Shown here: positions 1,836-49,600 of the stretch, in pieces
How the letters are laid out: every line of letters starts with the position of its first letter
Numbering within the stretch: the stretch's first letter is position 1
IMG/VR virus record: IMGVR_UViG_3300045988_096784
DNA: 64,000 bases
Source of the DNA: a virus
Reading direction: 5' to 3' (one strand)
Made by a program: the position numbers and the translations under genes
Notes under the pieces: model-generated
What the model was told of the DNA's origin: nothing
Databases searched by the model: none
The model's input: only the letters and a program-made list of their open reading frames with translations

Positions 1836-1914
1836 CTTCCTTTCTTACTTTCTATAAATATTATATCATATTTATAAAAATTTTTCAAATGTTTTCAAGA
1901 CGCTAGCTATTTAG

Positions 1915-1987
1915 CTCCGGAAATCGGATTCGAACCGATAATTTTTCACTTTGAGTTGAAATGTCTTAACCATTTGACTATTCTGGA
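1915..1987 (-). tRNA. atypical tRNA-like gene with 8-nt anticodon loop (ACUCAAAG); anticodon ambiguous (CAA or UCA depending on register)
   Basis: Perfect T arm ATCGG-TTCGAAT-CCGAT, acceptor with one A-C mismatch, perfect 5-bp anticodon stem TTTCA/TGAAA enclosing 8 nt, CCA not encoded. Confidence 0.4.
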
Positions 1988-2049
1988 AATAGATTTGCTG
2001 TATGCGTCTTATAGCAAGAGGGCCCTCCTATTGGGTCTGTCCTCTTAAA

Positions 2050-2125
2050 TGGTACTCCGAGCTGGACTCGAACCAAGCATCAAGCGATTATAAGTCGCCC
2101 GTTCTAACCTTTGAACTACCGGAGT
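2050..2125 (-). tRNA. tRNA-Ile (anticodon TAT)
   Basis: Acceptor ACTCCGG/TCGGAGT, anticodon stem GGCGA/TCGCT, loop CTTATAA, T loop TTCGAGT, CCA encoded; T stem slightly imperfect. Confidence 0.6.
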
Positions 2126-2253
2126 ATAGATAAAGTGAGTATTTTATTTAACGCATATCAGCCCCACTCACGCCTTACCTGTGCAATTATTTATAGTTAC
2201 TGTCGATAACTTATATAAATATTATATAATATTTATTTTTATTTTTCAAATAA

Positions 2254-2427
2254 TCAATAAGGAGTAGGTGTTCCATAAAGACCAGTAATATCAATATCAT
2301 TACATAGATCTCTAGTCACACAAGTTTCAAGTTCTGCCTGAGAAATAATCTCTTCCTCCGCTAGAGGTTCATCACTCTCAATAGTAGCAAGGATAGTGAA
2401 AGAAACTGCATAAGTATATTTACTCAT
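2254..2427 (-). CDS. hypothetical acidic protein (57 aa, MSKYTYAVSFTILATIESDEP...)
   Basis: ATG at 2427 preceded by AAGGAAAGGAAG and class-A promoter 2452-2500; below ORF-track size cutoff. Confidence 0.45.
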   Translation of the reverse strand: MSKYTYAVSFTILATIESDEPLAEEEIISQAELETCVTRDLCNDIDITGLYGTPTPY

Positions 2428-2602
2428 AAACTCAAAACTTCCTTTCCTTAACTTTCTATATATATTATATAATAATTTTTTTTATTTTTCAAGGAAGCGT
2501 AAGTTCTAGAAAATATTTCTCTTACGCTTCTCTTTTAGTAAGGAAGTTTGTACTATTATTAAACTTTATATTAAATATCTTAATTACCCATACCCAAAAT
2601 TT

Positions 2603-2911
2603 TTAATCAGTAATTCCCAACTTGGCTTTAAGTTCCTCAATCTTAGCTTTATCCTCTGGAGCCAACTCAGTTGGAGTAAAACTATTTGCGGATGGAGTAT
2701 CAGAACTTGATGTAGAGAGCGTACTATCTCCTCCGCCCGCAATCGGTGTCTTAGGCATTGTAAGTGATACAGCAATCTGAACAACTTCTCCACTCGCTCC
2801 ATCTTTTACTGAAATGTAAATCTTTTTATCCGAAACAAAAGAGCCTTCAAATGTTGAAAGAATTGTCTTTGTAATTAGGTCTTTCGCGGCATCTCCTCGT
2901 CTAACTGCCAT
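2603..2911 (-). CDS. hypothetical protein (102 aa)
   Basis: ORF abutting the next gene; S/T-rich central region. Confidence 0.5.
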   Translation of the reverse strand: MAVRRGDAAKDLITKTILSTFEGSFVSDKKIYISVKDGASGEVVQIAVSLTMPKTPIAGGGDSTLSTSSSDTPSANSFTPTELAPEDKAKIEELKAKLGITD

Positions 2912-4215
2912 TATTCATCGTCCTCCTCGATTAATCTATCCTCTTGTTTCATTAGATTATGGCAAGTCTTACAATACGGCCTACCATCCATCCAATAAAT
3001 TTTATCTTCATCATATATTCTACGATAACAACTATTACAAGTCAAGAAGAAATCTTCATCTGCCTCTTTCTCTGATATGCAGAAATTACATAAAAATGAA
3101 TCTTCTCTATTTATATGTTCTGTTCCACAACAGGGGCAAATTGGTCTTTCACCAATTTTGATTTGAAAAACATCATTAAAATATAGTTCTTCCACATATT
3201 TATTTTGATCTAAATGCTTTGTATAATCCTCATACTTTCCATTATTTACTGATATAATCGGTGCGTACGTACTAGAAATAACTAAATCGGAATATCCTAA
3301 ATAATCACTCATATCAATTACATCTCTCGTATCATGAATACGTCCACCTGCATTTATTTGATTATATATAAGTTGCTCACTACCCCATTGAGTTTGGATT
3401 ACTTTAAATCCATAATCAAGAGGAAGAGACATATCAAATTTAATCAATTTAAGTAACATATTATGTACACAAGCGAGTAAATCTCTTGATTCATATGGAT
3501 ATTGTCTATTATAATAAATATTTCTGATACCATCTGTATGGACTAACATTCTCCATTTTTTGCTATTCCATTTCATTCCTAATGGAAGACATTTTAGATG
3601 CTCTTGTTTACCATTAGATAAATAAGCAACAATAGTTGTTTTATCTACTAAATAACTAAGATTTCCACTTCTATAATCTCCATCAAGAGACTGACATGAC
3701 CACCAATTTTCATTGTTTTCTGAAATAGTTAAGAAATCAAGAGGATGAATAGAAAGATATAAATATCCTTCTATTTTATTTTCTTGCATATATCTTGAAG
3801 CAGTATCTTGTGCCCATCTAACAATCTCTTGACTGTTAATAAATCGCTTAAAAGATTTGGATAATTTAGAGCCTAGTGGAATATTAAAAGAAGGATATGG
3901 TAATAAAACCCTGTTATCAAAAAATCCTCCTTTATTATCTCTCAAAAATAATTCGAGATCAGTGGTTAAGATTCCGTTTTCATCAAGAGCTTGAATAAAC
4001 TCTTCAAATCTTTTATTCTTCTGCTCTTCTGTCAAAAGAATTTTAATTGGTTCCTTGCTTCTTAATATCAATTCTCCGCCAAAAAGATTTATTATATCTT
4101 TTTTCGCTTCTGCCCATTGTTCGATTAAATTTTTTGAATCGAGATAAAATGGATAATCTTGAGAATGAACAAGTACAGATTCAAAATCATTTTGTAACTT
4201 CTGTAATTCTATCAT
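2911..4215 (-). CDS. hypothetical protein (434 aa) with C-terminal multi-Cys zinc-ribbon-like region
   Basis: Long ORF without TAG; C terminus CPCCG...CNFC...CNSC...CKTC. Confidence 0.6.
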   Translation of the reverse strand: MIELQKLQNDFESVLVHSQDYPFYLDSKNLIEQWAEAKKDIINLFGGELILRSKEPIKILLTEEQKNKRFEEFIQALDENGILTTDLELFLRDNKGGFFDNRVLLPYPSFNIPLGSKLSKSFKRFINSQEIVRWAQDTASRYMQENKIEGYLYLSIHPLDFLTISENNENWWSCQSLDGDYRSGNLSYLVDKTTIVAYLSNGKQEHLKCLPLGMKWNSKKWRMLVHTDGIRNIYYNRQYPYESRDLLACVHNMLLKLIKFDMSLPLDYGFKVIQTQWGSEQLIYNQINAGGRIHDTRDVIDMSDYLGYSDLVISSTYAPIISVNNGKYEDYTKHLDQNKYVEELYFNDVFQIKIGERPICPCCGTEHINREDSFLCNFCISEKEADEDFFLTCNSCYRRIYDEDKIYWMDGRPYCKTCHNLMKQEDRLIEEDDE

Positions 4216-4236
4216 CTATATATTATATCTCCCATC

Positions 4237-4950
4237 TTATAAACTCCAATCAATCGGTTCTCCACCCATAGAAAGCAGTAAATTATTTGCTGTTGAAAAC
4301 GGTTTACTACCTTTAAACGCAGGAGTTCCTTTACATGGTTTACTTACACTAAAAGGACTTGGATGGGAAGATAAAATATAAGCCTTCTTAATCAAATTCT
4401 CTCTGGCAACTCCAGGTCCATCCCATACCATAGGACTAGAATTTAAATCTTTTAATAAATTCTGAGCATTAGCTCCCCATAACATAAAAACAATAGGTTG
4501 TGGCAAATGAGTTGCAGCTTTCAACACCGCTGTCGTAAACCTGTTCCATCCCCAATTAACACAGCTATTGGCTTGATGTTCATAGACAGTTAAACTTGCA
4601 TTAAGAAGCAATACTCCTCTTTCTGCCCAAGATGTTAAATCTCCAGACTGCGGAATTGGAATCCCTAAATCGCTATTAAGCTCGCTAAAAATATTTCTTA
4701 AAGATGGTTGAATGGGGCTCCCATCAGAAATAGAAAATGCTAACCCGTTTGCTGCGCCTGGGGTATGATACTGGTCTTGTCCTACAATACAAACTTTTAC
4801 ATCTTCTGGATGCGTAAGATTAAGCGCTCTAAAGATTTTATCCTATTCTGGAAATAAAATCTTTCCTTTAGAGCGCTCTTCTAAAGCATGATTTTCAAGT
4901 TGAACACTTAAATCCAGTGCCTCTTGAGGAAGAATTTCCGACCATTTCAC
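4237..4950 (-). CDS. ung: uracil-DNA glycosylase (family 1), reads through one in-frame TAG
   Basis: Motifs GQDQYH (GQDPYH), GVLLLN and HPSPFS match the UDG fold along the whole length. N-terminal two thirds only contiguous if TAG at 4843-4845 is translated. GTG start with AAGGAG. Confidence 0.8.
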
Positions 4951-5015
4951 TTTAGAAACACTCCTTTTATTATCTTTATAATAATATTATAATATATAAA
5001 AATAATAAAATCTAA

Positions 5016-5792
5016 TTATTTCTTTTTGCTAAGTCTAGCAAGTTCATGGAAATGCGAGATTACTGAAAAATAAGTATCACAATAATGACAAGAATGACCG
5101 GGTATATTACATTTTTGCCCACAGTTTAAACGAGTTTTTGCAAATGTTTCTTTAAATGTTAGATTATTTCTTGCCGGTAAGCCATCAATAAGAAGATTTA
5201 TGTCATAATTAAATGAACCTCTATTATAGATATTAAACAGAGTATCTTCTTTTTCTAAATTAGGTTGCTTAAAATCTATTACATCAATAGCAGAATATAA
5301 ATGGAGATCCTCTGGACGAATAAAAAAACTTGAAGGTTTTCTTTCTGCGGATAGGGAGACATTAGGGGAAATGGTGGGTGATACTCTTATCTTAATATCT
5401 CCTTTAACCTTTTCTAATAACTCCATTTGAAATCCTAGTGGTCCATCTATATAGATGTCACTAACCTTGGCCTCCCGCAATTCTTGAAAAGTTTCCCAAT
5501 CAGTAACCGGGAACCGCAAATATCTATTATATCCCATATCTTTTAAATCATTTAATTGATATATGTTTCCGCATTGAATAGTGTAATCATTTGCTATTGT
5601 TTTAATTATCTCAACCTGCTCAGCCAATCTTGTTAATTGCACCTGAGTTAATTCATCTGGAATAATTATATTACACCTTTTATTTGGATTTTCTTTAAGA
5701 AATTTAATGATTGTTCCTAATTGATTGTAGGGGCAACGTATCTCTCCAGCTATTTTTATATTGCCGGAATGATAATTTACACTAAATATCAT
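5016..5792 (-). CDS. hypothetical protein (258 aa), Cys/His-rich C terminus
   Basis: ORF, no TAG. Confidence 0.55.
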   Translation of the reverse strand: MIFSVNYHSGNIKIAGEIRCPYNQLGTIIKFLKENPNKRCNIIIPDELTQVQLTRLAEQVEIIKTIANDYTIQCGNIYQLNDLKDMGYNRYLRFPVTDWETFQELREAKVSDIYIDGPLGFQMELLEKVKGDIKIRVSPTISPNVSLSAERKPSSFFIRPEDLHLYSAIDVIDFKQPNLEKEDTLFNIYNRGSFNYDINLLIDGLPARNNLTFKETFAKTRLNCGQKCNIPGHSCHYCDTYFSVISHFHELARLSKKK

Positions 5793-5865
5793 TAAATAAG
5801 CCCTCCTTTATTTATATATTTATTATAGCATATAATAAAAAATCCGTCAATCTTGAGATGAAAAT

Positions 5866-5894
5866 GCCAAATTGACACATCCTTTTGCTTTTGT
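5866..5894 (+). promoter_or_regulatory. plus-strand sigma70 consensus promoter (TTGACA-17-TATAAT)
   Basis: TTGACAcatccttttgcttttgtTATAAT, followed by AAAAAGGAG and a GTG-initiated small ORF. Confidence 0.5.
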
Positions 5895-5941
5895 TATAAT
5901 AAATATATAAATAAAAAAGGAGTTTTAACTGTGGTTTTTAT

Positions 5942-6088
5942 TATTATCGCTATTTGCGTAATATTATTCGCGGCATTTCATATTATGAATTTTCCAGGTG
6001 GCCCTTCTGGATTTGCAATTTGTACTAAAGTATGGCTAAAAAGAAAGGTATCTACTTTTCGTAGATACCTTTCTAAAGGTTTTAATTA
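5942..6088 (+). CDS. possible small membrane protein (MVFIIIAICVILFAAFHIM...), lone plus-strand ORF in the early block
   Basis: GTG 8 nt after AAAAAGGAG; hydrophobic N terminus; first TAG at 6086-6088. If TAG is sense it would extend to TAA near 6105. Confidence 0.3.
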
Positions 6089-6526
6089 GCCAATTCTGCG
6101 GTAAGCAGAGAGCTTCTTAGACTTTCCACCCTCAGTGGAAGCAGGAACACTTACGGTCTCCTTAGCAACACGATTGACCTCAGGAGAAGCAAGCTGGGTT
6201 AGACGAGCAGTAACCATCTGAGCAGAAATGTCCTCGTCGTTCAAAACCTTTACAATATCATTGATAGTCATAGGCTCATCACCAAGGACTTCATAAATCT
6301 TCTCGCGAAGAGCATCTCCCTCGACCTTCTTAGCAGCAGCTCTCTTAGCGGCAGCAGCAGCCTTATTGTCAAGCAACTCTACCTCGTGCTCGACGAACTC
6401 GCGCAGGCTGTCATAAGTAATTTCACTGGACTCGAGGACAAGACCCTCGTTCTCAGCGACAGACAAAATGCTCAAAATAGCATTATAATTGGCTTTCTTT
6501 GTGGGCTTCTTTACAGTGTTAGACAT
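6086..6526 (-). CDS. hypothetical protein (146 aa), Ala/Lys-rich central segment
   Basis: ORF. Confidence 0.5.
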   Translation of the reverse strand: MSNTVKKPTKKANYNAILSILSVAENEGLVLESSEITYDSLREFVEHEVELLDNKAAAAAKRAAAKKVEGDALREKIYEVLGDEPMTINDIVKVLNDEDISAQMVTARLTQLASPEVNRVAKETVSVPASTEGGKSKKLSAYRRIG

Positions 6527-6608
6527 AATTTAATCAATTCCTCTCTTGTTTTATTGTATTTATATTATATGATATTTTTTGAGTAAAGTCAAGAAAATTT
6601 CTTGTAAT

Positions 6609-6917
6609 TTACAAAACACAATGGACTACATACCATTTAGGTTCTCGCATAATGTTTAACGCGCCCAAAATGTTTTTAAGTTCACTGGTTTCAAGATTGT
6701 TATTAGAGAAAGTGATTTCTCTAATTGTCCCTTCTTCAACGTCATCGCCTACTTGAATACCAATTACAATATCTTCATCATTATCATAGTAGTTAGCTCT
6801 GTGAATAAAATCGCAATTTTTATCACAAAATTCATCATCCTTCTGATTTAAGACATTGATTTCGTCATTTTCAAGACGAACTCCATAGACGATTTTAGTA
6901 AAATAGCTAACGCTCAT
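6609..6917 (-). CDS. hypothetical protein (102 aa)
   Basis: ORF with class-A promoter 6941-6985. Confidence 0.5.
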   Translation of the reverse strand: MSVSYFTKIVYGVRLENDEINVLNQKDDEFCDKNCDFIHRANYYDNDEDIVIGIQVGDDVEEGTIREITFSNNNLETSELKNILGALNIMREPKWYVVHCVL

Positions 6918-7164
6918 TACAAGAAATCTCCTTTCCTACTTTCTATATTTATTATAACTTATTTTTTTGTTTTTTGCAAACCGATTCCTTGACTAAAGTG
7001 GTAATTTTTATGTCAAATATCTCTAATGAAAAGGATTAGATTTGTAATCCAACAAGTTGCGGAGATGCTATATAAGACTGCGTGAAGCATTGTTGGTGAA
7101 GAATACAGAAGTATTAGAGACGAAAAGACAAGGAACATATATAGTATTAGCAGCAGAGTAGTTT

Positions 7165-7647
7165 TCATTTCATTTTAACCCATTCCTTATTTCTAGCTTT
7201 TTTATCGAGTAAGGTAGACAAATCCGCAGGTTTCTTCATATGACGGTCATCTCCATCGCGGAATTCATCCCAACCGAGCAGGAGATACTTTAGATGTTCA
7301 GGAGCATCATCAGGGAAAATATCGGTAGAAGCGATATACCAACCAATCCCTACGGCATATCTAGCTACGGACTCCCGCAGCCAATCTTCATCAGCAGCCT
7401 TATTCCCACGAATTACAAGAATAGGCCCATTGTCAAAGCCGCGAGCATGCTTTAGACCATCATAGCCTTTATCGATATCAACAATCTTCTTACCATAGGC
7501 TTTTGCATATTCTGCATCGCTGTAGTAGCGAACATCTCGATGATTCTTAGTATTTGGATGCTCTACAGTAACATAATATTTACCATTTTTAATAAAAGGC
7601 TCTTCAGTAATGCGCTTATAGGACTGAAAACTAGGTGCAACAGGCAT
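7165..7647 (-). CDS. hypothetical protein (160 aa)
   Basis: ORF. Confidence 0.5.
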   Translation of the reverse strand: MPVAPSFQSYKRITEEPFIKNGKYYVTVEHPNTKNHRDVRYYSDAEYAKAYGKKIVDIDKGYDGLKHARGFDNGPILVIRGNKAADEDWLRESVARYAVGIGWYIASTDIFPDDAPEHLKYLLLGWDEFRDGDDRHMKKPADLSTLLDKKARNKEWVKMK

Positions 7648-7660
7648 AATTTAAACCTCC

Positions 7661-7882
7661 TTAATGATTTTCACGAAGTTCATCAAGAGCGTTCTTGCTC
7701 AAAGCAATACAGCCTTCGCAATCCCAGGGGATAATTTTTACAGAATTTAAATCTTCCTCGCCGTAGTAATCAGTTACATTTCTGAGGGCTTCAGCGAAGT
7801 TGTTACCATAGGTAATGCCCTGATAAGTCTTTACCTGAAACTCTTCAAACATTTCTACCTCGTATTCGTAGTAATTCTTCAT
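7661..7882 (-). CDS. hypothetical protein (73 aa)
   Basis: ORF with class-A promoter 7895-7950 (TTGCAA-17-TATAAT). Confidence 0.5.
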   Translation of the reverse strand: MKNYYEYEVEMFEEFQVKTYQGITYGNNFAEALRNVTDYYGEEDLNSVKIIPWDCEGCIALSKNALDELRENH

Positions 7883-7992
7883 CTTTTGATACTCCTTTCC
7901 TCATCTTCTATAATTATTATATCATTATTTTTTAATTTTTGCAAAAGAAAAAGAGCTTCCTTTAAGGAAGCTCTTTGCTAGTTAATAAAGTT

Positions 7993-8223
7993 TTAAGATG
8001 CCTCTTCTTTGATTTTATAATCATAATCAAGGTTTTTGAGAAATTCGCCAAAATCATATCCAGAAATAATTCTACCGAATTTTGCGATGAACTGAGTCTG
8101 CGCGAAAAGAATAGCAAGTCTATATGCCTCGTCCGCAATCATATACTCAGGAGTTTCTCTATCAATAGGGAAATGGCTCTCGAAAGTTTTATTTTCGATA
8201 GAACAAGTAATAATAGCAGTCAT
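7993..8223 (-). CDS. hypothetical protein (76 aa)
   Basis: ORF with class-A promoter 8235-8285. Confidence 0.5.
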   Translation of the reverse strand: MTAIITCSIENKTFESHFPIDRETPEYMIADEAYRLAILFAQTQFIAKFGRIISGYDFGEFLKNLDYDYKIKEEAS

Positions 8224-8349
8224 GGCATTTACTTCCTTTCTTATTTTATATATTTATTATATATTATAATAAATATAATTGCAACAAGAGAAAAATAGAA
8301 GATGCGTGTGTAGGCGAGATTGGAAATTCTCCAATCTCGCCTATTAGGA

Positions 8350-9213
8350 TTACTTAGATGTGTCTCCAGTGAGGAAGCTAAAAGGATTAGAGTTGCCCAT
8401 CATAGCAGAAAGCATAAACATTTTACCCATATCGTTTCCATTATTGCCATCATTATCGCCAAACACCATGCTTGCCATCATCATAGGCATGAGATTGCCA
8501 AAAGGCTGGTCAGGAGAAGGTGCAGTATTACCAAAGTTTACGATAGGCATAATCTTGGTAATAAAGTTAAAGCCAAAGGGATTAGAGGTGGGAATTACAG
8601 TTTTAACCTCAGACTCAAGGATATCAATGACTTCAATGTTACCTTCAGAAATTGACGAAACGAACATGGGGTGATGCTTATGGATAATCATGTCGCCTTC
8701 CTTTACAGCAGAAGCCGCGACAGGCATACGATATACCATATTCTGGAAGGTGAAAGTAAAACCAGTCACATCAATGGTCTGCTTAGAGGTAGGATTATAG
8801 GTAAAATATTCACCCTTAGAATTACGAATAGCCAAGCCATAAGGAGAAAAAGCTACCTCGTCCCCGCAAGGGCCGAAATCAATATTCATATTAAAAGAGG
8901 ACTTATTGGGCTTAGGATTAGTAGTAGCAGAATTAGAGTCAGTATACATTGCCTTTGTCAACCTTTCTTTCATAATACTTACAAAACCGTAAGTGACGGG
9001 AATGTCATAGTGAAAAGAGCCACTATTTAAGAGTAGAAAAATTTCTCCACAGCGAATTTTAGTTTCAACTTCAAAAGTTAATTCTGAGGAAGCTAATTTC
9101 TTTAATAGTCTCCACGAATCATACGGAATTTTATAATATCCTGTTTTGGAATTAACTTTTTCTGTATATTTGTCAAGAATTGGGTCAATATCTTTAGAGC
9201 TAAGGCGATACAT
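8350..9213 (-). CDS. hypothetical protein (287 aa), Met/Gly/Asn-rich C-terminal tail
   Basis: ORF. Confidence 0.55.
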   Translation of the reverse strand: MYRLSSKDIDPILDKYTEKVNSKTGYYKIPYDSWRLLKKLASSELTFEVETKIRCGEIFLLLNSGSFHYDIPVTYGFVSIMKERLTKAMYTDSNSATTNPKPNKSSFNMNIDFGPCGDEVAFSPYGLAIRNSKGEYFTYNPTSKQTIDVTGFTFTFQNMVYRMPVAASAVKEGDMIIHKHHPMFVSSISEGNIEVIDILESEVKTVIPTSNPFGFNFITKIMPIVNFGNTAPSPDQPFGNLMPMMMASMVFGDNDGNNGNDMGKMFMLSAMMGNSNPFSFLTGDTSK

Positions 9214-15073: not shown

Positions 15074-15424
15074 TTAATTGAGAATTATCGGGTATGCCTT
15101 GCGAATAACCACCGTAACCATGGCCGGGGGAGTGTCGCACAAGAAACGGTCATTTCTGATAAAACGACCAATTCCCATACTCTGCCACAAAGTTCGGTTT
15201 ACATCCTCGTATCGTAGGGTATTATACTTGGAAAGTTTGATATGCCAATCATAGATAAAGGAACCATCTTCCGGCATGGTATAATCTAGCGCCCGCTTAT
15301 AATTTCTCGTATGTTCTGCGGCTCTGCGCTCAAGGTCATTTGTCGTACCAATCTTGAGAATATAGCGCCCCTTTTTGTCGATATAATGTCCGACATATAG
15401 GAACTCTTTTCCCCTTGTCTGCAA
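15074..15424 (-). CDS. GIY-YIG domain protein (free-standing nuclease-like)
   Basis: EFLYVGHYIDKKGRYILKIGTTNDLERRAAEHTRNY matches GIY-x10-YIG...R...E arrangement. Confidence 0.55.
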   Translation of the reverse strand: MQTRGKEFLYVGHYIDKKGRYILKIGTTNDLERRAAEHTRNYKRALDYTMPEDGSFIYDWHIKLSKYNTLRYEDVNRTLWQSMGIGRFIRNDRFLCDTPPAMVTVVIRKAYPIILN

Positions 15425-19183: not shown

Positions 19184-19645
19184 TTAACTTTCACATATAT
19201 TTGCAAGAAATCTTGCAGAAAGTTTAACCATGTCATGGACAGATTCTTCGTTATTGCTATTTTTATAGCAAATAAAACCAACCTGGTCGCCATTCACAAG
19301 AATTGGTGTAATAAACATACTTTCCCATTTTGTCGCCGAACTGCGAATATCAATCCAGTCATCGGGAACCCTTGTAATTCCAAATGAACGCGGCCCGCAT
19401 AAAATTCCATCATTGTCAAAAATAGCCGCGGCGATTCTGTTAGATGAAAGGGCATTTTGCATTTGTTTAGCGTAAGAGGAAAATTCTCCCATTATAGAAT
19501 ATTTCTTAAAAACTACGCCGCCATCTTCTTCAAGAAAAATCTCTAATGGGTCGCCTTCTCTAATATGAAGGTTTCTACGGATTTCCTTTGGAATTACTAT
19601 CCGGCCCAAATCATCAATACGGCGCACAATTCCAGTAGCTTTCAT
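19184..19645 (-). CDS. AbrB/SpoVT-family transcriptional regulator (swapped-hairpin domain plus C-terminal domain)
   Basis: N terminus MKATGIVRRIDDLGRIVIPKEIRRNLHIREGDPLEIF is the AbrB/MazE/SpoVT barrel signature. Confidence 0.65.
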   Translation of the reverse strand: MKATGIVRRIDDLGRIVIPKEIRRNLHIREGDPLEIFLEEDGGVVFKKYSIMGEFSSYAKQMQNALSSNRIAAAIFDNDGILCGPRSFGITRVPDDWIDIRSSATKWESMFITPILVNGDQVGFICYKNSNNEESVHDMVKLSARFLANICES

Positions 19646-23629: not shown

Positions 23630-24122
23630 ACTCTTTTGACTCCCTTTCTTTTTGTGGTGTGGTTCTCTTTTGTTCTGTCTGTATTGTATCAAACCTTTAG
23701 CAGTTTGTCAATACCTTTTTTGAAATTTTTTAATTTTCAAAGTGCCGTGCTTTTGTCTCTGTCCTACTGGACAAGTCCAGTTTACCACCAAAACACTCAC
23801 TTGTCAATAGTTTTTTTGAAATTTCTTTCTCTCTCTCTTGCACAAAATAAATAACATCTTGTTGTGCAGTTTGCACAAACCCTTTACGCGCGTATTCCTT
23901 TAGGGGCGTGCTTTCTTGCTTTCGTACTTTAACGAGTGAAAGAGGCCAACTACACTTCAATACTTTACCATGTGAAAGAGGGGCGCGTATTTTGGGAAAA
24001 ACTGGAAATTTTTTTGTAAAATCGTTCTGCCACGCCATTTCAAAATCTAAATCGACTTTTCAATCTCAATAACGAAAAAGAGAGAAGAACTCACTTCTTC
24101 TCTCCGCATTTACAATATAATC

Positions 24123-24365
24123 TTATCCATCGTCGGTTGCTTCAAAATTAAAAATCAAATTATATCCATCCTCAGTTTCTATCATTTCATATCCTTTTAA
24201 GATATATCCATCCTCTAGTTTAATATTAGTCGCATCAGATCTCCACATTGTAGGAATATACTCTAGCCTTGGATAACGATCGTTCTCCTTTCCGCAAGCA
24301 GTTAACAACAATACGATTAATATTATGTTAATTATAAAGCTGATACTTCTTCCCAATTTTATCAA
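24123..24365 (-). CDS. putative lipoprotein (signal peptide with lipobox LLTAC)
   Basis: TTG start after GGAGG; MIKLGRSISFIINIILIVLLLTACGK. Confidence 0.5.
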   Translation of the reverse strand: MIKLGRSISFIINIILIVLLLTACGKENDRYPRLEYIPTMWRSDATNIKLEDGYILKGYEMIETEDGYNLIFNFEATDDG

Positions 24366-24765
24366 TTTCTTCCGCCTCCATTGGCCTAAATCCAATACAC
24401 GTCAAAGTCCCTTCCGGGCCTTCACGCTCTAACTCCGTCCTACAAGCATCATAAATAAGCCAGTAGTCTTTATTCTCTTCCCATCCTAATTCTTTAGCCA
24501 TTGCAACAGCTTTTAGCAAATCATTCTTATTCTTCGCTCTACAAACTACTTTGGTCTCCGCTTCCGCTATCCAGTTATGGAATAAGTCTCTATCGAGGCT
24601 TATTCCTATATGATACATAAGACCGTCTCTTTCTTTAACAACTTCTTTACTTCCCCAATATAACTTTTCCAAAAGAAAAGCAATAGAAGCATGGGAAACT
24701 TGTGCGGCAAGTTTCCCTGGAGACATATTTAAATCTCGTCTTGCGATAATTAATTGCTTGAACAT
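24328..24765 (-). CDS. peptidyl-tRNA hydrolase, PTH2 family
   Basis: Signature MSPGKLAAQVSHASIAF near the N terminus and about 115-aa core typical of PTH2. Confidence 0.6.
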   Translation of the reverse strand: MFKQLIIARRDLNMSPGKLAAQVSHASIAFLLEKLYWGSKEVVKERDGLMYHIGISLDRDLFHNWIAEAETKVVCRAKNKNDLLKAVAMAKELGWEENKDYWLIYDACRTELEREGPEGTLTCIGFRPMEAEEIDKIGKKYQLYN

Positions 24766-25517
24766 TTTTCCAAAACCTCCAAGAAAATTCTAAAATTGCG
24801 GGAATTGCGGTCTGGAATTGCAAAATAAATATTTGGAATATTATAATTGCGGGCTGCGTTTACGAGCAAGGTAGCGACCGTTGATGGATCTTGCATAAAA
24901 ACACCACAACCCCAGGCTCCCGCGATTAAATTTTCCACTCCTTTAGCCTCGGCAATTTGATACATAAAATTAATTCTCTCTTCCATTATCCTATTGTTTA
25001 GAGAAAGAGGAACTTGCTGATAAGTATGTGCTGTTCTATAATTAGGAGAAGCACAAGTAATTACATCAGCTAATTTTCTACTATCGTCTTTTTCAAAGAC
25101 TACATCAGGAGTATAGATAGCTCTATCAAGATATAGGGCTCGATTCAGTCTCTGTCTATTCCATGCGTAATAAGTATCATCAAAAGCAAGAAGAATAGGG
25201 TAAAGGTTGCTTTCGTGACACAATGCCTCTTCTTGTGCAGAGCTGCCTCCAAGGAAGTAACCACCTGGATGTTTATAGCTTGCATAATTTAAGATCGCAG
25301 TCTTGCTCCGATCGGTTAAACCGAATAGACAGGATACACTATCTTGGTCTTTAAGATAAAAGGTATTATGGTGGGTTTCTCGCGGTTTTTGCGGAAAAGG
25401 AAGATTGGGGCCAAAAATTTCAGAGTTTATAATTGCGCGATCTGTATCTTCCTTGAGTCTCACTTTAATGTCTGCGTAATGCGATTGCGCGTGTTGTTTG
25501 AGCTCTTCTCGTTTCAT
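24750..25517 (-). CDS. bacterial-type poly(ADP-ribose) glycohydrolase-like macrodomain protein (DUF2263/TIGR02452-like)
   Basis: PARG signature GGYFLGGSSAQEE (GGG-X6-8-QEE) plus downstream AGAWGCGVF glycine-rich macro motif. Confidence 0.6.
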   Translation of the reverse strand: MKREELKQHAQSHYADIKVRLKEDTDRAIINSEIFGPNLPFPQKPRETHHNTFYLKDQDSVSCLFGLTDRSKTAILNYASYKHPGGYFLGGSSAQEEALCHESNLYPILLAFDDTYYAWNRQRLNRALYLDRAIYTPDVVFEKDDSRKLADVITCASPNYRTAHTYQQVPLSLNNRIMEERINFMYQIAEAKGVENLIAGAWGCGVFMQDPSTVATLLVNAARNYNIPNIYFAIPDRNSRNFRIFLEVLEKCSSN

Positions 25518-25742
25518 TTGCAGTTTCCTTTCTTCCGTGCGGTTGGGCAGAAGTGGATAATTTAATTATCCCAATCTTCAAATAAAGTGTGTAAACTATT
25601 TGTTTCCGCCGCCAATCTCTTTAAATATTCTTTAAGAATTTTATTTTCTTTAACTTTAATTGCATAATCGCAAGTATTGTCGCAGTCTGGTGTGTACTAC
25701 CGACCGAATCTATTATAACAATAATCAATACAAGGACACATT

Positions 25743-26183
25743 TTACTCATATTTACACCCATTCATTCTACAGTCTATCGTGCATTGCCCTGACGCTCCT
25801 TCACAAGGAATAGCATCAGGATAGTATTCAAAATAAGACGAGGTTAATAGAACTTCATACCCAAGTTCCCGCAGTATTCTCTCTGCGACATACCTATCTC
25901 TTAACTTAATCCATTCTTCTCTGTTTACTTTTGTTTCTCTATCTATTTGATTTGAGGTGTCTACATCCACAGTTATAGTTCCATCACTAATAGAGATGGC
26001 CTCATCCAACCTTCTAAACCATTTTTTAAAGGGATTTTGAATATGCAATATATCTTCAGCATATTTGTCAAAATCTTCCGAAAATTTCATTATCTTTGTG
26101 CCTGTTTCGCTAACTATAAACAATTTTTCATCAACCCCAATCTTGTTAATAGACCTACTCCTCCGGGGACAGGAGTTGACCAT
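25743..26183 (-). CDS. hypothetical protein, C-terminal Cys cluster; true start uncertain (overlaps folD end)
   Basis: ORF; C terminus CEGASGQCTIDCRMNGCKYE. Confidence 0.4.
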   Translation of the reverse strand: MVNSCPRRSRSINKIGVDEKLFIVSETGTKIMKFSEDFDKYAEDILHIQNPFKKWFRRLDEAISISDGTITVDVDTSNQIDRETKVNREEWIKLRDRYVAERILRELGYEVLLTSSYFEYYPDAIPCEGASGQCTIDCRMNGCKYE

Positions 26184-26875
26184 ACCTTATTTTTACTTGC
26201 AATTTCATCAATTTCTACAAAGTCTCCAAGAATAATTCCTGCTTCATTTCTACGAATACCAACATCTATAACAATAGCATTAGGACAGGCTTCTCTTGTT
26301 AAGCTAAATTTTCCTACCGCAGAGATAATTAAATCCGCTTGTCTTGTTAAATAGAGTTTTGTGTTTATATCTGTTTTACTGTGACACATTGATACGGTCA
26401 TATTTCTATCTAGAAGAGCTTTAGCCATTGGCTTTCCTACAATATCGCTTCTTCCCAAAACAACAGCAGATTTACCTTCGTAGTTAAAGCCACATTTATC
26501 CAAATAATCTATAATTCCTCTTACTGTTGCTGGAGTAATATTACTCATTGGATTTAATCCATCTGCATCTTTAGAAACAGGTATTTGATTATAATTGAAA
26601 TCAATCCCGTCTGCTATTGGCATTTGGACTATTACAGCATCCCAATCTTTCACATGGTCTAAGATCAATCTTAACTCTACTGAACTATTAGCTCTAAACA
26701 CTTCTGCTTCCCAACCAAGAGCGTTAAAGTCTTTTATTTTATTACGAATATAAATTTGATTTGCGGGATCCTAGGCTGTTGCGTCGATAATCATGAGTGA
26801 TGGAACATTACCACTAATCTCCCGCAATTTGTTTACCTATTGTTGAAAATATTCTTTTATATTAATCTATTGCAT
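26114..26875 (-). CDS. folD: bifunctional methylene-THF dehydrogenase/cyclohydrolase FolD, reads through 3 in-frame TAG
   Basis: C-terminal domain matches FolD throughout (GKSAVVLGRSDIVGKPMA, TPVPGGVGLLT). N-terminal 58 codons (MQ-TAG-INIKEYFQQ-TAG-VNKLREISGNVPSLMIIDATA-TAG-DPANQIYIRNKIK) align to the FolD N terminus only if the 3 TAG are sense. ATG 10 nt after GGAGG. Confidence 0.75.
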
Positions 26876-27194
26876 CTGGATCAAGCCTCCAAGGATCACT
26901 AGTATCGTAATCAATCATTTCATAGAAAGATATTTCATTTTCATTAACTTCTAATACCTAGTGAGGAATACACTATACTTCATAATCAAAATCTTTATTA
27001 ATATGGTAAGAAGTATATATATGAATAGCAATAGGTCTAGGATCATTAACTCCCTAAATATCCCATAAACTTATTGCTTTATTTTGGAAGATTTCCTAAG
27101 CATACTATGGAGATATAGCAATACTGATTATTAAGATATTAAAATAATACTATGCTTTTTCCGGTAAATCTAAATATGGTTCGTCAAAGAACAT
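26862..27194 (-). CDS. hypothetical protein (110 aa) carrying 8 in-frame TAG; first gene of the leftward transcript, stop overlaps folD start
   Basis: ATG after AGGAG; minus promoter TTGATT-17-TATAAT at 27232-27260; frame open only if TAG is sense; ends TAA within ATGCAATAG of folD. Confidence 0.45.
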
Positions 27195-27231
27195 TGGCAA
27201 ACAAATCTCCTATCTTATTTTTTATAATTAT

Positions 27232-27296
27232 ATTATAGCATTTTTAAATAAATTAATCAAATAAGATTTGACAATCTAGTTTTTTTTTGTTATTAT
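27232..27296. promoter_or_regulatory. divergent promoter region: leftward TTGATT-17-TATAAT and rightward TTGACA-17-TATTAT
   Basis: Back-to-back consensus elements separating the minus-strand block from the plus-strand late operon. Confidence 0.55.
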
Positions 27297-43696: not shown

Positions 43697-46600
43697 GTGG
43701 CTAATAATAGAAGATTAAATTATTAGATTGGGTTTGATGTTGATACTGCTGAACTTTACAGAGCAGTAAACGAGGCAGTTCAATCTTTAAATAAAATCAG
43801 TGCCGGTTCTAAAGTTACAGCAGAATTGCGACAAGCTTCTTAGTCTGCGCTAGAGTTATCTACTTATATGCATTAGGCATTTAATCAAGGGACTGGAAAG
43901 TTAGATTTAGTAGCTTTTGAAAATAGTTTAAAATCTAGCGGAAGAATTCTTAAAGATTATGCCAACTCGTTAATTTCGATTGGTACCGAGGGGCAAAAGG
44001 CTTTTTTAAATGTAGCAACAGCGATTCAAAAAGCGGAGCTTCCAGCATTGCGCACTGGCAAAATATTTGATTAGTTATGGATTACTATGAAAAATACTAT
44101 GAGATGGCAGATTACCTCCACCGCGTTAAATAGTTTTGTGGAAACCATAGAATCAGCTTATGGGTATGCACAAGATCTAAATGAATCATTAACAAATATT
44201 CGTATAGTTACTGAAAATTCTGCGGAAGACATGGCTAAATTTGCTCAATAGGCAAATGAAGCAGCAAAAGCATTAAGTACAACTACTGTTGAATATAGTG
44301 ATGCTGCTTTGATTTATTATCAATAGGGTCTTACTGAATAGGAAGTTTTAGATAGAACTGAAACTACTATTAAAATGGCTAATGCCGCAGGAATTAGTGC
44401 ATAGACCGCTTCGGATCAGCTGACCGCAGTTTGGAACAACTTCTATGATGGAAGTAAGAGTCTTGAATATTATGCTGATGTAATGGCGCGTTTAGGCGCC
44501 GATACAGCGTCTAGCTCTGATGAAATTTCAGAAGGTATCCAACAATTTGCCTCTGTAGCAGATACAGTTGGATTAAGTTACGAATATGCTGCTTCTGCTC
44601 TTGCTACTGTCACTGCTACGACACGTGAGTCTGCTAATACAGTAGGTACAGCATTTAGAACTTTATTTGCTCGTATCCAAAGCTTAAATCTTGGAGAAAC
44701 TCTCGATGATGGCACTACATTAAATAAATATTCTAAAGCTCTTGAAAAAGTGGGTATTGATATTTTTGATGTTAATGGTGAGATTAAAACTATGGATACC
44801 TTACTTGATGAAATGGGTTCAAAATGGGAGACCTTATCTAATGACTAGTAGATTGCTTTGGCTTAGACCGTAGCCGGAGTTCGCCAATATACTCGTCTTA
44901 TTGCACTTATGGATAATTGGGATTTCTTTTAGGAGAATTTAGCTAGTGCTTATGGAGCAGAGGGATCTCTTTAGGAACAGGCAGATATTTATGCTGAATC
45001 TTGGGAAGCTGCTAGAGATAGAGTAAAAGCATCTGCTGAGGATATTTATGATAGTGTCATAAATCCAGATTTGTATATAAATGCAGATAATGTCTTAACT
45101 CCATTTTTATCTGGTATTGCAGACGCCATTGATGCAATGGGAGGGTTAAATGGTATTTTAGCTAGTACCGCTTTGTTGATTAATGGGATTTATGGAAATA
45201 AGATTGCTGAATCAATGCGTTCTATGGTGGCTAATATAAAAGTTCTATCTGGATTAGAGTAGAATAGAGCGAGAAATTTGTAGGCATCAGCGGCTGAGAT
45301 AGCAACTCAATTAGGCTTAACAAACTCTATGTCTTAGGCTGAAAAAAATCTTTTTAATATTATGGTTGACTAGGCTAATATATAGGGCCAAATAAATAGT
45401 AACTACGACGCGATGGATGCTAATGGTCGTAGATTAATTTAGACAGAACAGTTAAAATTAAGTATTTTGCAAGATTAGTTAAAGACATATTCTTAGTAGT
45501 AGATTTAGTCTAGGGAAAATGTATTAAATCTTAGAGATACTATTTATTTTAATATAGGAATAAAAGATGGCTGGCAAGAAGAAGTTAAAGCAGAAATAAA
45601 TAAATTTAATAGTAGAAATAAAAGTAATCAAATTTAGTTAAATATAAGAGCTAATAGTAACCTTGATAAAATTTATAATGATGTTACTACTTAGTTAACT
45701 AGTTTAATTTAGCAATCTACAAAACTTGATACAGTGTATCAAGAATTTAAAAAACTTGAAAGCGCTGGAACTGCGACTAGAGACAGCCTTCGTAATTTAT
45801 TATCTAGTGTTACGGGCAAAGAACATAATTATGCTTAGATTGAATGGCTGACTTAGCAATTAGAGGGGTTAAAAAATTAGTCTCAAAATGCAAAATTGCA
45901 AATTCGTGAACTTGGGACTATTTTATAGACTATGGGAGCCGATCCAAGAGTAGTTACTTCTTATATTAATGAATTAACAAAATTGGAGTCTGTTACTGCA
46001 AGAACAACTGAACAAGAGGCTCGATATTAGGAATTGTTAGCGAAGTTCCCTAGTGTAATTATAAAAGCATTAATACCAACGAGAGATTGGGCTACAATAT
46101 TGGTTTAGGTTGGAAGTTCTCTTTCTAGTTTAACTATGATTATGAATGCTTTTTAGAGCATTGGAAGAATTTTTTCTGATGAAGATATGACTTCAACTGA
46201 AAGAATTGTAGCTTTGTTTACTTCTCTTGGTATGTTACTACCCTCTATTATTTCTGTTTATAAAACTTTAAATATGTTAACTACTGCTCATGCTGTTGCA
46301 GCAGCGGCGTCCGCCGCGGCAACATCAGTAGAGGCTTTAGCGACAGAATAGCTTGCTATGGCGAAGCAGAAAGCCGCTATGGCTTCCGGCATCTTAACTG
46401 CTGCAATTATGGTAGCAATAATAGCGATTACTGCAATAACAAGTGCTATAAAAGCATAGCATGAAGCAACCTTGGCTGCTGCTTAGGCCTCTATTGATGC
46501 GGCAAATGCAAAAAAAGAAGAAGCACAAGCGAATAGAGAGTTAATTCAATCTACTCAAAATGCCTTATCTACTTATCAAGAAACTGGGGATGGAAAAGAA

Positions 46601-49600
46601 GAGTTAGATGATTTAACTCGTTAGTTGGCTGAAGCGTATGATTTAGAAGGCAGTGCATTAGCTAGACTAAGTGGATAGTATGAAGATTATAATAGTGTTT
46701 TAAAAGCTGCTCAAGAAGCTCAAAGAAGAGAACTTTAGGAAACTTTGTAGTCCCAAGAAGAAGCGTTACGTGCGAATGAAACTCTCATTCTTGAAACCGC
46801 GAGAGAGGGCGTGGGCCACGTATATTTTGGTGGAAATTATGAGGGGTCTTTTACTGGTTTTAATGATTTTTGGAATGGCACCGAAGAAGATACTGCATCT
46901 AATATTCTTCTCAATAATGTGGACGCTTTATATAGTAGTTGGAATGACAATGTAATTGGCGGAAGAAGAAACTTAGCTTTTTCTATAGACCCAAATAATA
47001 CAGAAGAATTAATTAATTTTTATGATCAATTAAATAATGCTATTAATTTGATGAATAATAGCATGACTGTTTCGGAAAGAGGAGCATCTGGACTTTACAA
47101 TGCTGCTGTTGAGTGGCGAGATAAAATGGAAGAGGTTGTCACTCAATATAAAGAAACTAAAGAGAGTATAAATGCTATTCGGGTATAGCTTGGAGAGTTT
47201 AATAATTAGACTATTACCGATGATCAAGTATCAAGTTTAGCGTAGTATAAAATTTGGGTTAACGAAGTTACAGAGGCGCTCACTTCTGCTGGGTATGAAG
47301 GCGAAGAATTAAACGATATAATCAATGATTTAGTATCTACTTCTCTGAATCCTGATATTAGTGGCTTTAAAGATATTTATGACGCAATTTTAGAGGTTGA
47401 AGAATTAGTCAATGATGAAGAATTAAAAAGTAATCTTGAATCTATTTTTACAGATGAAAATTATGATACTTCTGTATTAAATTTATTAAATTGGGGTGCT
47501 TTAACATAGGAGACTTTTTAGGATGCCTATGACAGTGCTAAAAAATATACTGATGCTATTTCCGAAGTTGAAAACGCAACAGAATCTTTAACTACTGCAC
47601 AATCTGCCTTAGAAACTCTTGGAGATAGAGATTTAGATCGAGAAGGATTAGAATCACTTTCTAAAACTGTTGATTGGGGAAATCAAGAAAAAGGAATTAT
47701 TGATTTTAATTAGTTCCTTGCTATGACTTTGGTTGAACAATAGAGTTATTTATAGAGGATTATAAATGAGTCCTATTAGGCTGTCAATAATGGATTAATA
47801 GATTAGATTAGTGAAGCAAAAAAGAGAATAACTGAGCAATAGGATATTTTAAATCAATATAGCGATTCTGAATTAGAACGTGCAGAAAAAGTTGTTTATG
47901 CTTGGGAACAAGTTCGAGAAGCGTATAATGATTATCAAGGTAGCTTAAATAGCGGAGAAGAATTTAATCTTGATAATTATACGATTGATTGGGATTTGTT
48001 AGGTGAAAATTTTGATTGGGAATCTTTTAAAACCGAAACTGCGGATAACGTAGCTAGTGCATTTGAGTATGGGACAAAAGAAGCTCAAGATAAAATTGAT
48101 ACTGTAACTTTAGCAGAGTAGCTAATTAGTAGTTTATAGGATGATATAGATTCTAGCACAGCTTAGTTACAAATAAATGCAGAATTAAATTTTTAGAATC
48201 AATTAGATTAGATTGAAAATTCCGTTGATGGAATTGTAAGTGTATTCGATGCTATTTCTGATGGAGTAAGCTAGACTACCAATGAAGCTGGAGAACAAGT
48301 TTGGAGTTTTAGTAGAGAAGCAGCTAAGGCTATTGAATCTATCTATCCAGGTTTTATAGCTAACGCGGAATTATTAAGGGATGGTACATTTGCTTTAACA
48401 GATGAGATGTATCAAGCATTTTATAATAGTTCTTAGGGGCAATTAGCTGTTGATGCTGATACCAAATCTAATATGCTTCAAAATCTTATTTCTCTTTTAG
48501 AGGCTAAACGAGGAGAGGCTGAAGCTTCGCTTAAGATCGCTGATCAGCTAGCTTCTGGAGAATTAACTATAAACGAATTATCAGATGAGCAGAAGAGAAC
48601 TTTATTAGCGGGATATGTAAATGCTTAGAATCTTGCTAATGGAGAAATGTTAGATGATTAGGTCAATAGTTTAACCGCACAAGATACAAATTAGTAGACT
48701 TTATGGACTAATGTTAGCGAGTATTCTGCTTAGGGCGCGCAGAACATGAGTACTAATGTATAGTTAAATACTCAAAATGTTCTTGCTAATCTTGAAAAAA
48801 TTAGAGATGCGGCATATGCTACTGGAATTCAAGTATCTCAAATAGGAACTGATAATGTTACTAAGCAAGATTTTGATACTTCTGCTGTTTCTTTTGATAG
48901 TTCGGCTGCAACAACAATAGATACGAGTAACGCTGATGATTTCTTAAATTCTTTAACTGCAAATTTAGATGTAGAACCTGTAACCGCAGACGATTTAAAT
49001 ATTTATGGTGATGCTAGTGAGGCACTTGAAGCTAAGCAATCTTAGGCAGTTGGAGAAGCGCTAAGGGCCATTTATTAGGGGAGTATTGATGGGTATAATG
49101 AGGCTATAGCAGCAGCAAAAATAGCCTAGAGCAAATTATTAGATTCTATTGATGGAGCTATAGAAGGAGTAAAGGGAAGTTCAAGTGGCGGAGATAATGA
49201 AGGCACTAAGTATGACGAAGAAGATGAAAAGACTCTAAAGGATATTGAAGATAGATACCATGAAATAACTCGCGAAATTGAGAATTAGAACGATTTATTA
49301 GATGATATTGGAAATAATATAGATAGAGCCTATGGAGCCAATAAACTTCAAGCATACTAGAGAGAACTTCAAGAATTGGAGAAATAGCAAGCTAATTATA
49401 ACAAACTACTTAATGAAGCTGAAACTTATCTTACAAAAGACTAGGCAGATCTTCAAGGGTTGTTTAATAATTCTCTTATTTTTGATGAAAATGGAGAAAT
49501 TGAAGATTATCAAAGTGTTCTTCAATCTATAATAGATGATTATAATAATAATTTCTTGGCAGATTATAATGCTTTTTTAGTTACCTTTAGTAATCTTACT

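Follow-up and report, generated by a model that had tools for sequence, protein, structure and literature searches.

A bacterial-type PARG gene with a predicted translational link to Pth2 in a TAG-recoded phage: a candidate eraser of RNA ADP-ribosylation

Bacterial-type PARGs include enzymes that act on ADP-ribosylated RNA. Thus, SCO0909 from S. coelicolor and DRB0099 (DrPARG) from D. radiodurans reverse the 2'-OH ADP-ribosylation of RNA by the Pseudomonas toxin RhsP2 and protect cells from this toxin, and they also remove ADP-ribose from the 5'-phosphate ends of RNA and DNA (PMC11833690). In the hydrolase panels of the same study, RhsP2-type 2'-OH modification of RNA was reversed only by PARGs and guanosine-base modification of RNA only by NADARs, and DRB0099 was found to sit in a ligase-PARG-HD/Pnk operon (PMC11833690). 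In phages, Macro genes have been predicted to act early against host responses based on NAD or ADP-ribose (ADPr), or in RNA repair, and Pth2 is regarded as a ribosome-rescue gene of jumbo phages (PMC9503650, PMC7824862). We here analyzed a stretch of 64,000 nucleotides from the IMG/VR virus record IMGVR_UViG_3300045988_096784, hereafter the window, which encodes a PARG-type ADP-ribose glycohydrolase directly followed by a Pth2-type peptidyl-tRNA hydrolase. We propose, with a probability of roughly 0.45, that this PARG strips ADP-ribose from RNA and, together with Pth2, protects translation.

A sequence-only reading of the window had marked a PARG-like macrodomain gene at positions 24750-25517, and this open reading frame (ORF) is indeed real, with exactly these coordinates on the minus strand. 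When its product was searched against curated hidden Markov models, as that reading had suggested, it scored 172.8 bits with TIGR02452 (curated cut-off 50, E=9.8e-51, profile positions 21-264 of 266) and 93 bits with PF10021, PARG_cat_microb, the microbial-type PARG catalytic domain (cut-off 23.5, E=3e-26). In addition, comparison by sequence only retrieved the D. radiodurans PARG (E~1e-24) and the T. curvata PARG (E~3e-21). Since both models were matched above their curated cut-offs and the solved PARGs were recovered as well, the motif match goes far beyond chance, and the ORF product belongs to the family of bacterial-type PARGs (TIGR02452/PF10021/DUF2263). The macrodomain fold on which the assignment depended is also predicted. 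Thus, an AlphaFold2 model built on 40 homologues reached a predicted local distance difference test score (pLDDT) of 92.5 and a predicted template modelling (TM) score of 0.91, and a Foldseek search with this model returned the T. curvata PARG 3SIG with a TM score of 0.83 (E 9e-18). Most entries of DrPARG (5ZDB-5ZDG) followed with TM scores of 0.80-0.81 and the apo structure 5ZDA with 0.77, whereas canonical eukaryotic PARGs and ordinary macrodomains scored far lower, at TM ~0.45-0.55.

We next compared the active site across an alignment of 40 sequences with identities down to 39%, of which 39 are database homologues that all match PF10021. The sequence-only reading had written the signature as GGG-X6-8-QEE; the QEE element is present, but a strict GGG is not, as the actual signature is GG-Y-X7-QEE with Tyr (Y87) in the place of the third Gly. 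Position 87 is variable in the alignment (Y9, G9, M8, F6, L3, Q2), and since Gly occurs there in just nine of the 40 sequences, a strict GGG does not define this subfamily. In contrast, G85, G86, G91, Q95, E96 and E97 of the catalytic loop are invariant. The glycine-rich macrodomain loop that had also been noted was recovered as AGAWGCGVF; its residues 200-207 are identical to GAWGCGVF of DrPARG in the alignment, and A201, G203, C204, G205 and F207 are invariant. Q95-E96-E97 aligns with the QEE of DrPARG, so that E97 corresponds to the catalytic E112, as judged from the alignment and a mutagenesis primer sequence (PMC6445106). According to the primer sequences, E112 is the second Glu of the QEE, and its replacement in E112A abolishes activity (PMC6445106). 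At the ribose cap, T267 of DrPARG is equivalent to R268 of TcPARG, the T. curvata enzyme (PMC6445106). By offset mapping through the DrPARG alignment, D260 and T267 fall on D236 and R243 of the phage protein, positions that hold Asp in 20 of the 40 sequences and Lys or Arg in 19 of the 40, respectively. The phage enzyme may therefore carry a TcPARG-like Asp/Arg ribose cap (Asp261/Arg268 in TcPARG) and be exo-acting, as far as this offset mapping goes. From its family, fold and conserved residues, the phage PARG is apparently catalytically competent.

A ribosome-binding-site-like AAAGGAAA lies 8 nt upstream of the PARG start. Of the 81 loci examined, 80 have an uninterrupted PARG frame; in the remaining one, L030 (IMGVR_UViG_3300045988_055134, 6001-6696), codon 209 is an in-frame TAA, owing perhaps to pseudogene formation or to a sequencing error. 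Some database homologues are short (148-169 aa). An in-frame TAG as the cause of this shortness found no support in the 81 loci, none of which has a TAG in PARG.

The PARG gene belongs to the first leftward operon of the window, in the order FolD-orf146-orf66-PARG-Pth2-orf90 (Table 1). The ATG of Pth2 falls within the final codons of PARG, so that the two genes overlap by 16 nt; its Shine-Dalgarno sequence, GGAGG, is placed 8-12 nt upstream, within the 3' end of PARG. This arrangement is classical for translational coupling, and from the gene layout Pth2 is predicted to be translationally coupled to PARG. The Pth2 protein scored 80.8 bits with PF01981 (cut-off 23), was assigned to phrog_1866, and matched Pth2 structures in the PDB, which are archaeal, with E values of 7e-15 to 3e-7. 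Archaeal Pth2 has counterparts of its GK(18) and D(106)-x3-T(110) motifs in the alignment, and the presumed catalytic residues K18, D106 and T110 are invariant in four phage homologues. The protein falls below the NCBIfam equivalog cut-offs (82 vs 126) and carries an insertion of ~25 aa, and thus represents a divergent phage subfamily.

We then examined the gene neighbourhoods of PARG in other phages, relatives of which were found on at least 279 IMG/VR contigs, mostly of 90-280 kb. The window's own phage family, whose terminase and neighbouring genes are 63-87% identical, shows the window's gene order in eight loci (L001-L008) and several rearranged ones. Thus, L009 reads FolD-orf146-Pth2-orf90-PARG, L016 reads orf146-PARG-FolD without Pth2, L030 retains orf146 and the interrupted PARG without FolD or Pth2, and L084 retains PARG-Pth2 without FolD or orf146. 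PARG and Pth2 hence stay together despite the shuffling of gene order within the phage family (L009, L084). The content of the L030 locus suggests that the operon is dispensable in its parts and in flux. A further contig, L043 (IMGVR_UViG_3300045988_169419), shares only PARG and Pth2 with the window and has an unrelated backbone; there, both genes lie in a same-strand cluster (Table 1) whose domain logic, by analogy, is that of the DRB0099 operon reproduced in a phage. RlaP in this cluster is an RNA-ligase-associated Pol-beta nucleotidyltransferase, the DUF4406 protein is deoxyribosyltransferase-like, and the sirtuin, 1.7 kb from PARG, scores as a CobB-type deacylase.

In a survey of the two genes on either side of PARG, PTH2 was the commonest family, with four of 27 viral PARG groups. 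Within 6 kb on either side of the same 27 groups, searched at BLAST level, we detected Metallophos in 11, RlaP in five, Pnk-HD, Pth2 and DUF2828/DUF7788 in four each, and an Rnl2-type RNA ligase in two, so that at least one RNA-repair-type neighbour was present in 16 groups. In Clostridia genomes, Metallophos was again the commonest neighbour of PARG (4/27 groups). The reciprocal survey of Pth2, which covered 80 loci in 13 groups, found PARG nearby in three, Pnk-HD in four, DUF2828 in three and Metallophos in one. A PARG-Pth2 pair as an obligate two-gene system is ruled out by the three of 13. Taken together, the PARG-Pth2 link is real but facultative, and both genes belong to a loose neighbourhood of RNA repair and translation rescue. 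Among the more distant relatives, Bacillus phage G (L162, JN638751.1) encodes an unannotated PARG-type gene, gp114 (66154-66984, 27% identical), and 3.4 kb downstream of it a second macrodomain of the Appr-1-p type, gp122 (70350-70829); phage G thus carries two different macrodomain erasers.

A cognate ADP-ribosyltransferase (ART) would alter how the PARG is to be understood; none was found. No ART family was matched among the 27 window ORFs scanned, which comprised 26 left-arm ORFs, including every operon gene but orf66, and one unlikely overlapping frame; of orf66, a fragment was scanned as the C-terminal tail of an overlong orf146 frame. The right-arm proteins lay outside this Pfam scan, so that an ART could be embedded there. 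Likewise, the 108 genes that flank PARG in one representative of each of the 27 viral PARG groups (two genes on either side) included no ART, and the same held for 105 flanking genes in 27 PARG groups of Clostridia. PADLOC returned nothing for the PARG operon, and PHROGs and PADLOC returned nothing for PARG. Orf146, conserved and upstream of PARG, was the sole candidate for a cryptic ART or toxin partner and was ruled out by its lack of any family match, its helical model and the absence of a PDB fold match. Since no ART was found beside PARG in phage or bacterial relatives, the enzyme is an orphan eraser, here and generally.

These observations can be combined into the following scheme. Host toxins or defence enzymes, or side reactions of NAD-dependent RNA repair, would attach ADP-ribose to RNA, and the PARG macrodomain would bind the terminal ADP-ribose and cleave the O-glycosidic bond at C1'', thereby freeing the backbone 2'-OH of structured RNAs such as tRNA, or 5'-phosphate ends. 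Pth2 would recycle the peptidyl-tRNA released by stalled ribosomes, and the two enzymes would together keep translation running for a phage that relies heavily on it, with its tRNA array and TAG-to-Gln recoding. The Pth2 partner and the RNA-repair neighbours in other lineages argue for RNA as the substrate rather than DNA or protein. The sequence-only reading had named DNA, proteins and signals as substrates, and RNA was not among them. Enzymatic activity, RNA substrate, early timing and counter-defence purpose are all what we infer, and a counter-defence role is plausible.

Several observations weigh against this assignment. No RNA ligase, Pnk, RlaP or Metallophos gene is present within the 64-kb window, and 11 of the 27 viral PARG groups have no repair-type neighbour. 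PARG lies near PTH2 in three of 13 PTH2 groups only, and the largest PTH2 group lacks PARG, which makes the link facultative. Metallophos accompanies 11 of 27 PARG groups versus one of 13 PTH2 groups (Fisher p=0.06, one partial control), suggestive of a Metallophos link specific to PARG. The neighbourhood counts have no matched random-locus background, and the associations are thus leads and not proofs. The FolD gene in the PARG operon needs TAG read-through, so that expression "early, before recoding" is unsupported for the whole transcript. Pth2 may instead serve the recoding lifestyle, unrelated to PARG. Our literature search turned up no experimental study of a phage PARG; the Bacillus phage genome papers that it returned do not seem to deal with poly(ADP-ribose) glycohydrolase and probably refer to ParG partition proteins. 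An RNA-targeting ART defence is not known from gut Clostridia.

Other substrates were weighed against RNA. The PARG could degrade soluble ADPr derivatives, including the 2' and 3' isomers of cyclic ADP-ribose (cADPR) used by Thoeris, and so blunt NAD-based immune signalling or toxicity. Comparative genomics has indeed been taken to argue that phage Macro domains counter mainly soluble ADPr derivatives, and do so early (Iyer et al., PMC9503650), and as RyDEP is the only enzyme class so far known to cleave these signals, the niche is open (PMC13232231). The orphan status of the PARG fits a diffusible substrate and the bond chemistry of such signals matches that of poly(ADP-ribose) (PAR), while in L043 the CobB-like sirtuin close to PARG is a producer of O-acyl-ADPr. 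A neighbouring Metallophos protein could act downstream as an ADP-ribose or cADPR phosphohydrolase, in the manner of the ADPRibase-Mn-type enzymes. However, we found no report of a PARG cleaving cADPR isomers; the Asp236/Arg243 cap, if the offset mapping is right, blocks the adenosine 2'-OH side and should disfavour a substrate cyclised through that oxygen, and signal degradation leaves the coupling to Pth2 and the Pnk, RlaP and ligase neighbours unexplained. We therefore consider soluble signals an unlikely target. The proposal of the sequence-only reading, in which the PARG erases poly- or mono-ADP-ribosylation of protein or DNA made by host PARP-like or DarT-like enzymes, likewise appears improbable, although it has precedents. 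The family is defined by its hydrolysis of PAR (TcPARG, DrPARG; PMC6445106), Clostridiales encode PARPs and the DUF2263 protein of C. difficile CD160 removes PAR (PMC5966428), the likely hosts are gut Clostridia, and DarTG has been proven to act against phages, some of which carry orphan antitoxin-like enzymes directed at it (PMC11825919). On the other hand, bacterial PARPs are rare, with 72 sequences in a 2018 survey (PMC5966428), and the hydrolases that reverse base-linked ADP-ribosylation of DNA are of the DarG/TARG1 or NADAR type and not of the PARG type (PMC11833690). The loci further show no DarT or PARP neighbour and no PADLOC match, and their gene context is RNA-oriented. Moreover, PARG enzymes are inefficient at removing protein-proximal ADP-ribose.

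It is also conceivable, at long odds, that the PARG balances an ART, or a KptA- or sirtuin-type RNA-repair transferase, from another part of the phage genome. It would then restrain or proof-read self-inflicted ADP-ribosylation, for instance by removing 5'-P-ADPr caps that stand in the way of ligation. ARTs are common in large phages (PMC7824862, PMC9503650), the 5'-P-ADPr product of Tpt1/KptA-type enzymes is a substrate that PARGs remove (PMC11833690), the L043 cluster includes a sirtuin, and the window covers only 64 kb of ~146 kb. Yet neither ART, KptA nor sirtuin was detected in the 27 window ORFs scanned or in the two-gene flanks of the 27 viral groups, the L043 sirtuin is a CobB-type deacylase by score, and the window lacks an RNA ligase. 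Finally, the PARG might be a decaying or inactive passenger, either a binding-only macrodomain or an incipient pseudogene, to which the in-frame TAA of L030, the broken GGG (GGY) and the shuffled operon content, with PARG dispensable among relatives, could be ascribed. Since the catalytic and ligand-binding residues are all invariant across the 40 homologues, even at 39% identity, and the intact frame in nearly all loci is joined by a good ribosome-binding site and a confident model, we regard this as highly improbable.

Table 1. Features of the PARG locus and its surroundings (positions in the window, except for the L043 cluster, which is given in positions of its own contig)
Feature	Position	Strand	Basis or remarks
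PARG-type ADP-ribose glycohydrolase gene	24750..25517	(-)	ATG start, TAA stop, 255 aa, no in-frame TAG
Catalytic loop codons, PARG residues 85-97 GGYFLGGSSAQEE	25227..25265	(-)	alignment of homologues
Diphosphate-binding loop codons, PARG residues 199-207 AGAWGCGVF	24897..24923	(-)	alignment of homologues
Pth2-type peptidyl-tRNA hydrolase gene, 145 aa	24328..24765	(-)	PF01981
FolD (methylene-tetrahydrofolate dehydrogenase/cyclohydrolase), first operon gene, 261 aa, both domains	26090..26875	(-)	Pfam/NCBIfam/PHROG
orf146, likely 115 aa from MKFSEDF, small helical protein	25743..26090	(-)	homologue alignment, model
orf66, small Cys-rich ORF, one in-frame TAG	25562..25762	(-)	sequence only
orf90, last operon gene, putative small lipoprotein, true start uncertain	24123..24395	(-)	sequence only
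Terminator-like hairpin, 11-bp stem and T tract, closing the FolD-to-orf90 operon	24079..24105	(-)	sequence
Divergent control region between leftward accessory arm and rightward TAG-recoded virion arm	26972..27296	both	GC-skew switch, ORF map, promoter-like sites
2,908-aa ORF, 101 in-frame TAGs, probably tape-measure protein	43697-52423	(+)	largest right-arm ORF
AbrB/MazE/SpoVT-type DNA-binding protein	19184-19645	(-)	PF04014, E 1e-11
T5orf172 (GIY-YIG-related) fragment	15074-15424	(-)	recognisable by family
8 tRNA genes: Glu-TTC, Ala-TGC, Asp-GTC, Leu-GAG, Leu-TAG, Asn-GTT, Leu-CAA, Ile-TAT	194-2125	(-)	Rfam
L043 same-strand cluster, ~9 kb: Pnk-like AAA_33/KTI12 + HD, HNH, RlaP, DHHA1 phosphoesterase, PARG, DUF4406, Pth2, CobB-like sirtuin	200-9067	(+)	

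The operon is predicted to be transcribed from the divergent control region, where promoter-like sites, as consensus matches only, were recognized on the minus strand (27260-27232, TTGATT-17-TATAAT) and on the plus strand (27268-27296, TTGACA-17-TATTAT). FolD is full length only if four in-frame TAGs are read as sense (Gln). With these four and the single TAG of orf66, the idea that the standard code suffices for the entire operon, which would hence be early, is ruled out, as only PARG, Pth2 and orf146 are TAG-free; one transcript thus combines a suppression-dependent FolD with TAG-free PARG and Pth2. Orf146 accompanies PARG in several relatives and carries an invariant C-terminal PCxGxxGQCxxxC motif. 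Its 25 homologues all come from unannotated metagenomic or viral contigs, most apparently of this phage group, and it has no Pfam, PHROG or PADLOC match; its model (pLDDT 72) is helical with a disordered Cys-rich tail, and the best PDB match had an E value of 1.1. Orf90 has a hydrophobic N-terminus ending in an LLTAC lipobox and homologues in L001-L009, and could be a small lipoprotein of the phage, such as one of the superinfection-exclusion type.

The phage origin assumed by the sequence-only reading was borne out, as the window consists of the virion and packaging arm and the accessory arm of a TAG-recoded phage. With code 11, hardly any long ORF is found in the right 37 kb, whereas reading TAG as sense fills them with plus-strand ORFs that follow one another without gaps and reach 2,908 aa. 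The virion arm (27252-64000, plus strand) contains 274 in-frame TAGs, which make up 49% of its Gln-type codons, and the accessory arm (2600-26914, minus strand) contains 16, or 8%. Of 119 positions aligned with window TAGs, related phages fill 66 with CAA or CAG, 20 with TAG and 14 with a Glu codon; the 66 CAA/CAG positions indicate that TAG encodes Gln. All 10 Gln codons of PARG are CAA or CAG (P~0.001 under right-arm usage), and the enzyme can thus be produced without TAG suppression. The Rfam scan of the 64-kb window found tRNAs only and no suppressor tRNA with a CUA anticodon, which places the TAG-decoding tRNA elsewhere in the ~146-kb genome or implies that it is supplied otherwise.

We judged the right arm to be a packaging and virion module from the size and order of its ORFs and from Yon matches in L001; the right arms of relatives match the Pfam families YonB, YonD and YonG. 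Downstream of the 2,908-aa ORF lie ORFs of 1,304, 929 and 634 aa, likely tail or baseplate proteins. The SPbeta-type Yon packaging and virion genes suggest, without proof, a siphovirus. The left arm (minus strand, ~2.6-26.9 kb) holds ~48 small ORFs, and 21 of the 26 scanned have no Pfam match; the PF04014 protein and the T5orf172 fragment are two of its very few recognisable genes. The neighbouring anti-defence genes for which the sequence-only reading had advised looking were not found: none of the known ones lies close to PARG, PARG itself has no match in PADLOC or PHROGs, and most neighbours are ORFans. Between ~11000 and 14430, hardly any ORF exceeds 60 aa on either strand in either code, the GC skew is positive, opposite to the rest of the left arm, and Rfam matched nothing.

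The source is likely a phage of ~146-149 kb from gut Clostridia. Near-identical PARGs occur on viral contigs of 96-146 kb, copies with 90-91% identity on contigs of 148-149 kb binned in metagenome-assembled genomes of Oscillospiraceae and Eubacterium, and the more distant cellular homologues all belong to gut Clostridia and relatives. An origin from a Lak-type megaphage, suggested by the first tblastn matches, was ruled out by the close relatives of 141-149 kb with SPbeta-type Yon genes; the Lak resemblance reflects only the wide spread of the PARG gene among large phages. No nucleotide match to known phages extended beyond 58 nt.

The enzyme family and phage Macro domains are already known, and a macrodomain hydrolase in a large phage will not surprise a specialist; what is new is the PARG-Pth2 context, a modest twist. 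If the RNA-eraser assignment is true, it would give a first function for a phage PARG, carry the recently discovered action of PARGs on 2'-OH- and 5'-P-ADP-ribosylated RNA over from immunity against interbacterial toxins to the conflict of phage and host, and predict undiscovered RNA-ADP-ribosylating defences in gut Firmicutes. In its most general form, which we hold as tentative and rather doubtful, phage PARGs would be a widespread class of orphan erasers by which tRNA and other structured RNAs are shielded from the RNA-targeting ARTs of hosts, forming with Pth2 a two-enzyme "tRNA rescue" cassette; RNA ADP-ribosylation would then be frequent among the anti-phage strategies of gut Clostridia, though not yet recognised as one of them. 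Its small size, good model and obvious catalytic mutants make the PARG amenable to a direct comparison of the competing substrates (PAR, ADPr-RNA, ADPr-DNA and cADPR isomers). Should the PARG prove ordinary, its locus still illustrates cleanly how an accessory gene in the standard code sits within a phage recoded from TAG to Gln.

Comparison with described systems sets this locus in a wider frame. RyDEP, the RyR-domain glycosidase that acts on 2'cADPR and 3'cADPR (PMC13232231), is likewise a phage glycosidase for a ribose-ribose O-glycosidic bond of an ADP-ribose derivative; it differs in its unrelated fold and in its demonstrated anti-Thoeris activity, an activity that for the PARG is hypothetical. 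DarG and the phage NADAR enzymes directed against DarTG1 (PMC11825919) share the concept of a toxic-mark eraser carried without its toxin. They differ in belonging to the TARG1/ALC1-like macrodomain clade or to the unrelated NADAR fold, and in acting on base-linked DNA ADP-ribose. The DarG analogy drawn by the sequence-only reading therefore did not hold up: the best sequence and fold matches of the window protein are PARGs, of a different macrodomain clade, it has a single domain without DarT (DUF4433) or a DarT-binding domain, and no DarT-like or other ART neighbour was found here or in the contexts of 54 relatives.

The phage Macro proteins of earlier surveys (PMC9503650, PMC7824862) are likewise stand-alone, located in the accessory region of large phages and free of a coupled transferase. 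In these papers, the word PARG is absent, the PARG clade is not singled out and no PARG-Pth2 operon is described. According to the surveys of Iyer et al., Macro domains are strikingly rare (~1%) in siphoviruses, whereas the phage of the window has SPbeta-type Yon genes. Closest of all are the bacterial-type PARGs (T. curvata 3SIG, D. radiodurans DRB0099 5ZDA-G, S. coelicolor SCO0909 and C. difficile CD160), which share with the phage enzyme the HMM family, the fold, the QEE and GAWGCGVF motifs, a similar size (~255 aa) and the single-domain architecture. The likeness to DRB0099 extends to gene context, as PARG relatives in other phages stand beside ligase and kinase-phosphatase genes for RNA/DNA end repair. 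No description of a pairing with Pth2 was found for cellular PARGs, and the window PARG, with its predicted Pth2 coupling, is further distinguished from the solved bacterial enzymes, to which it is 24-29% identical, in that it is encoded by a phage with a TAG-to-Gln genome and carries Tyr in the place of the third Gly.

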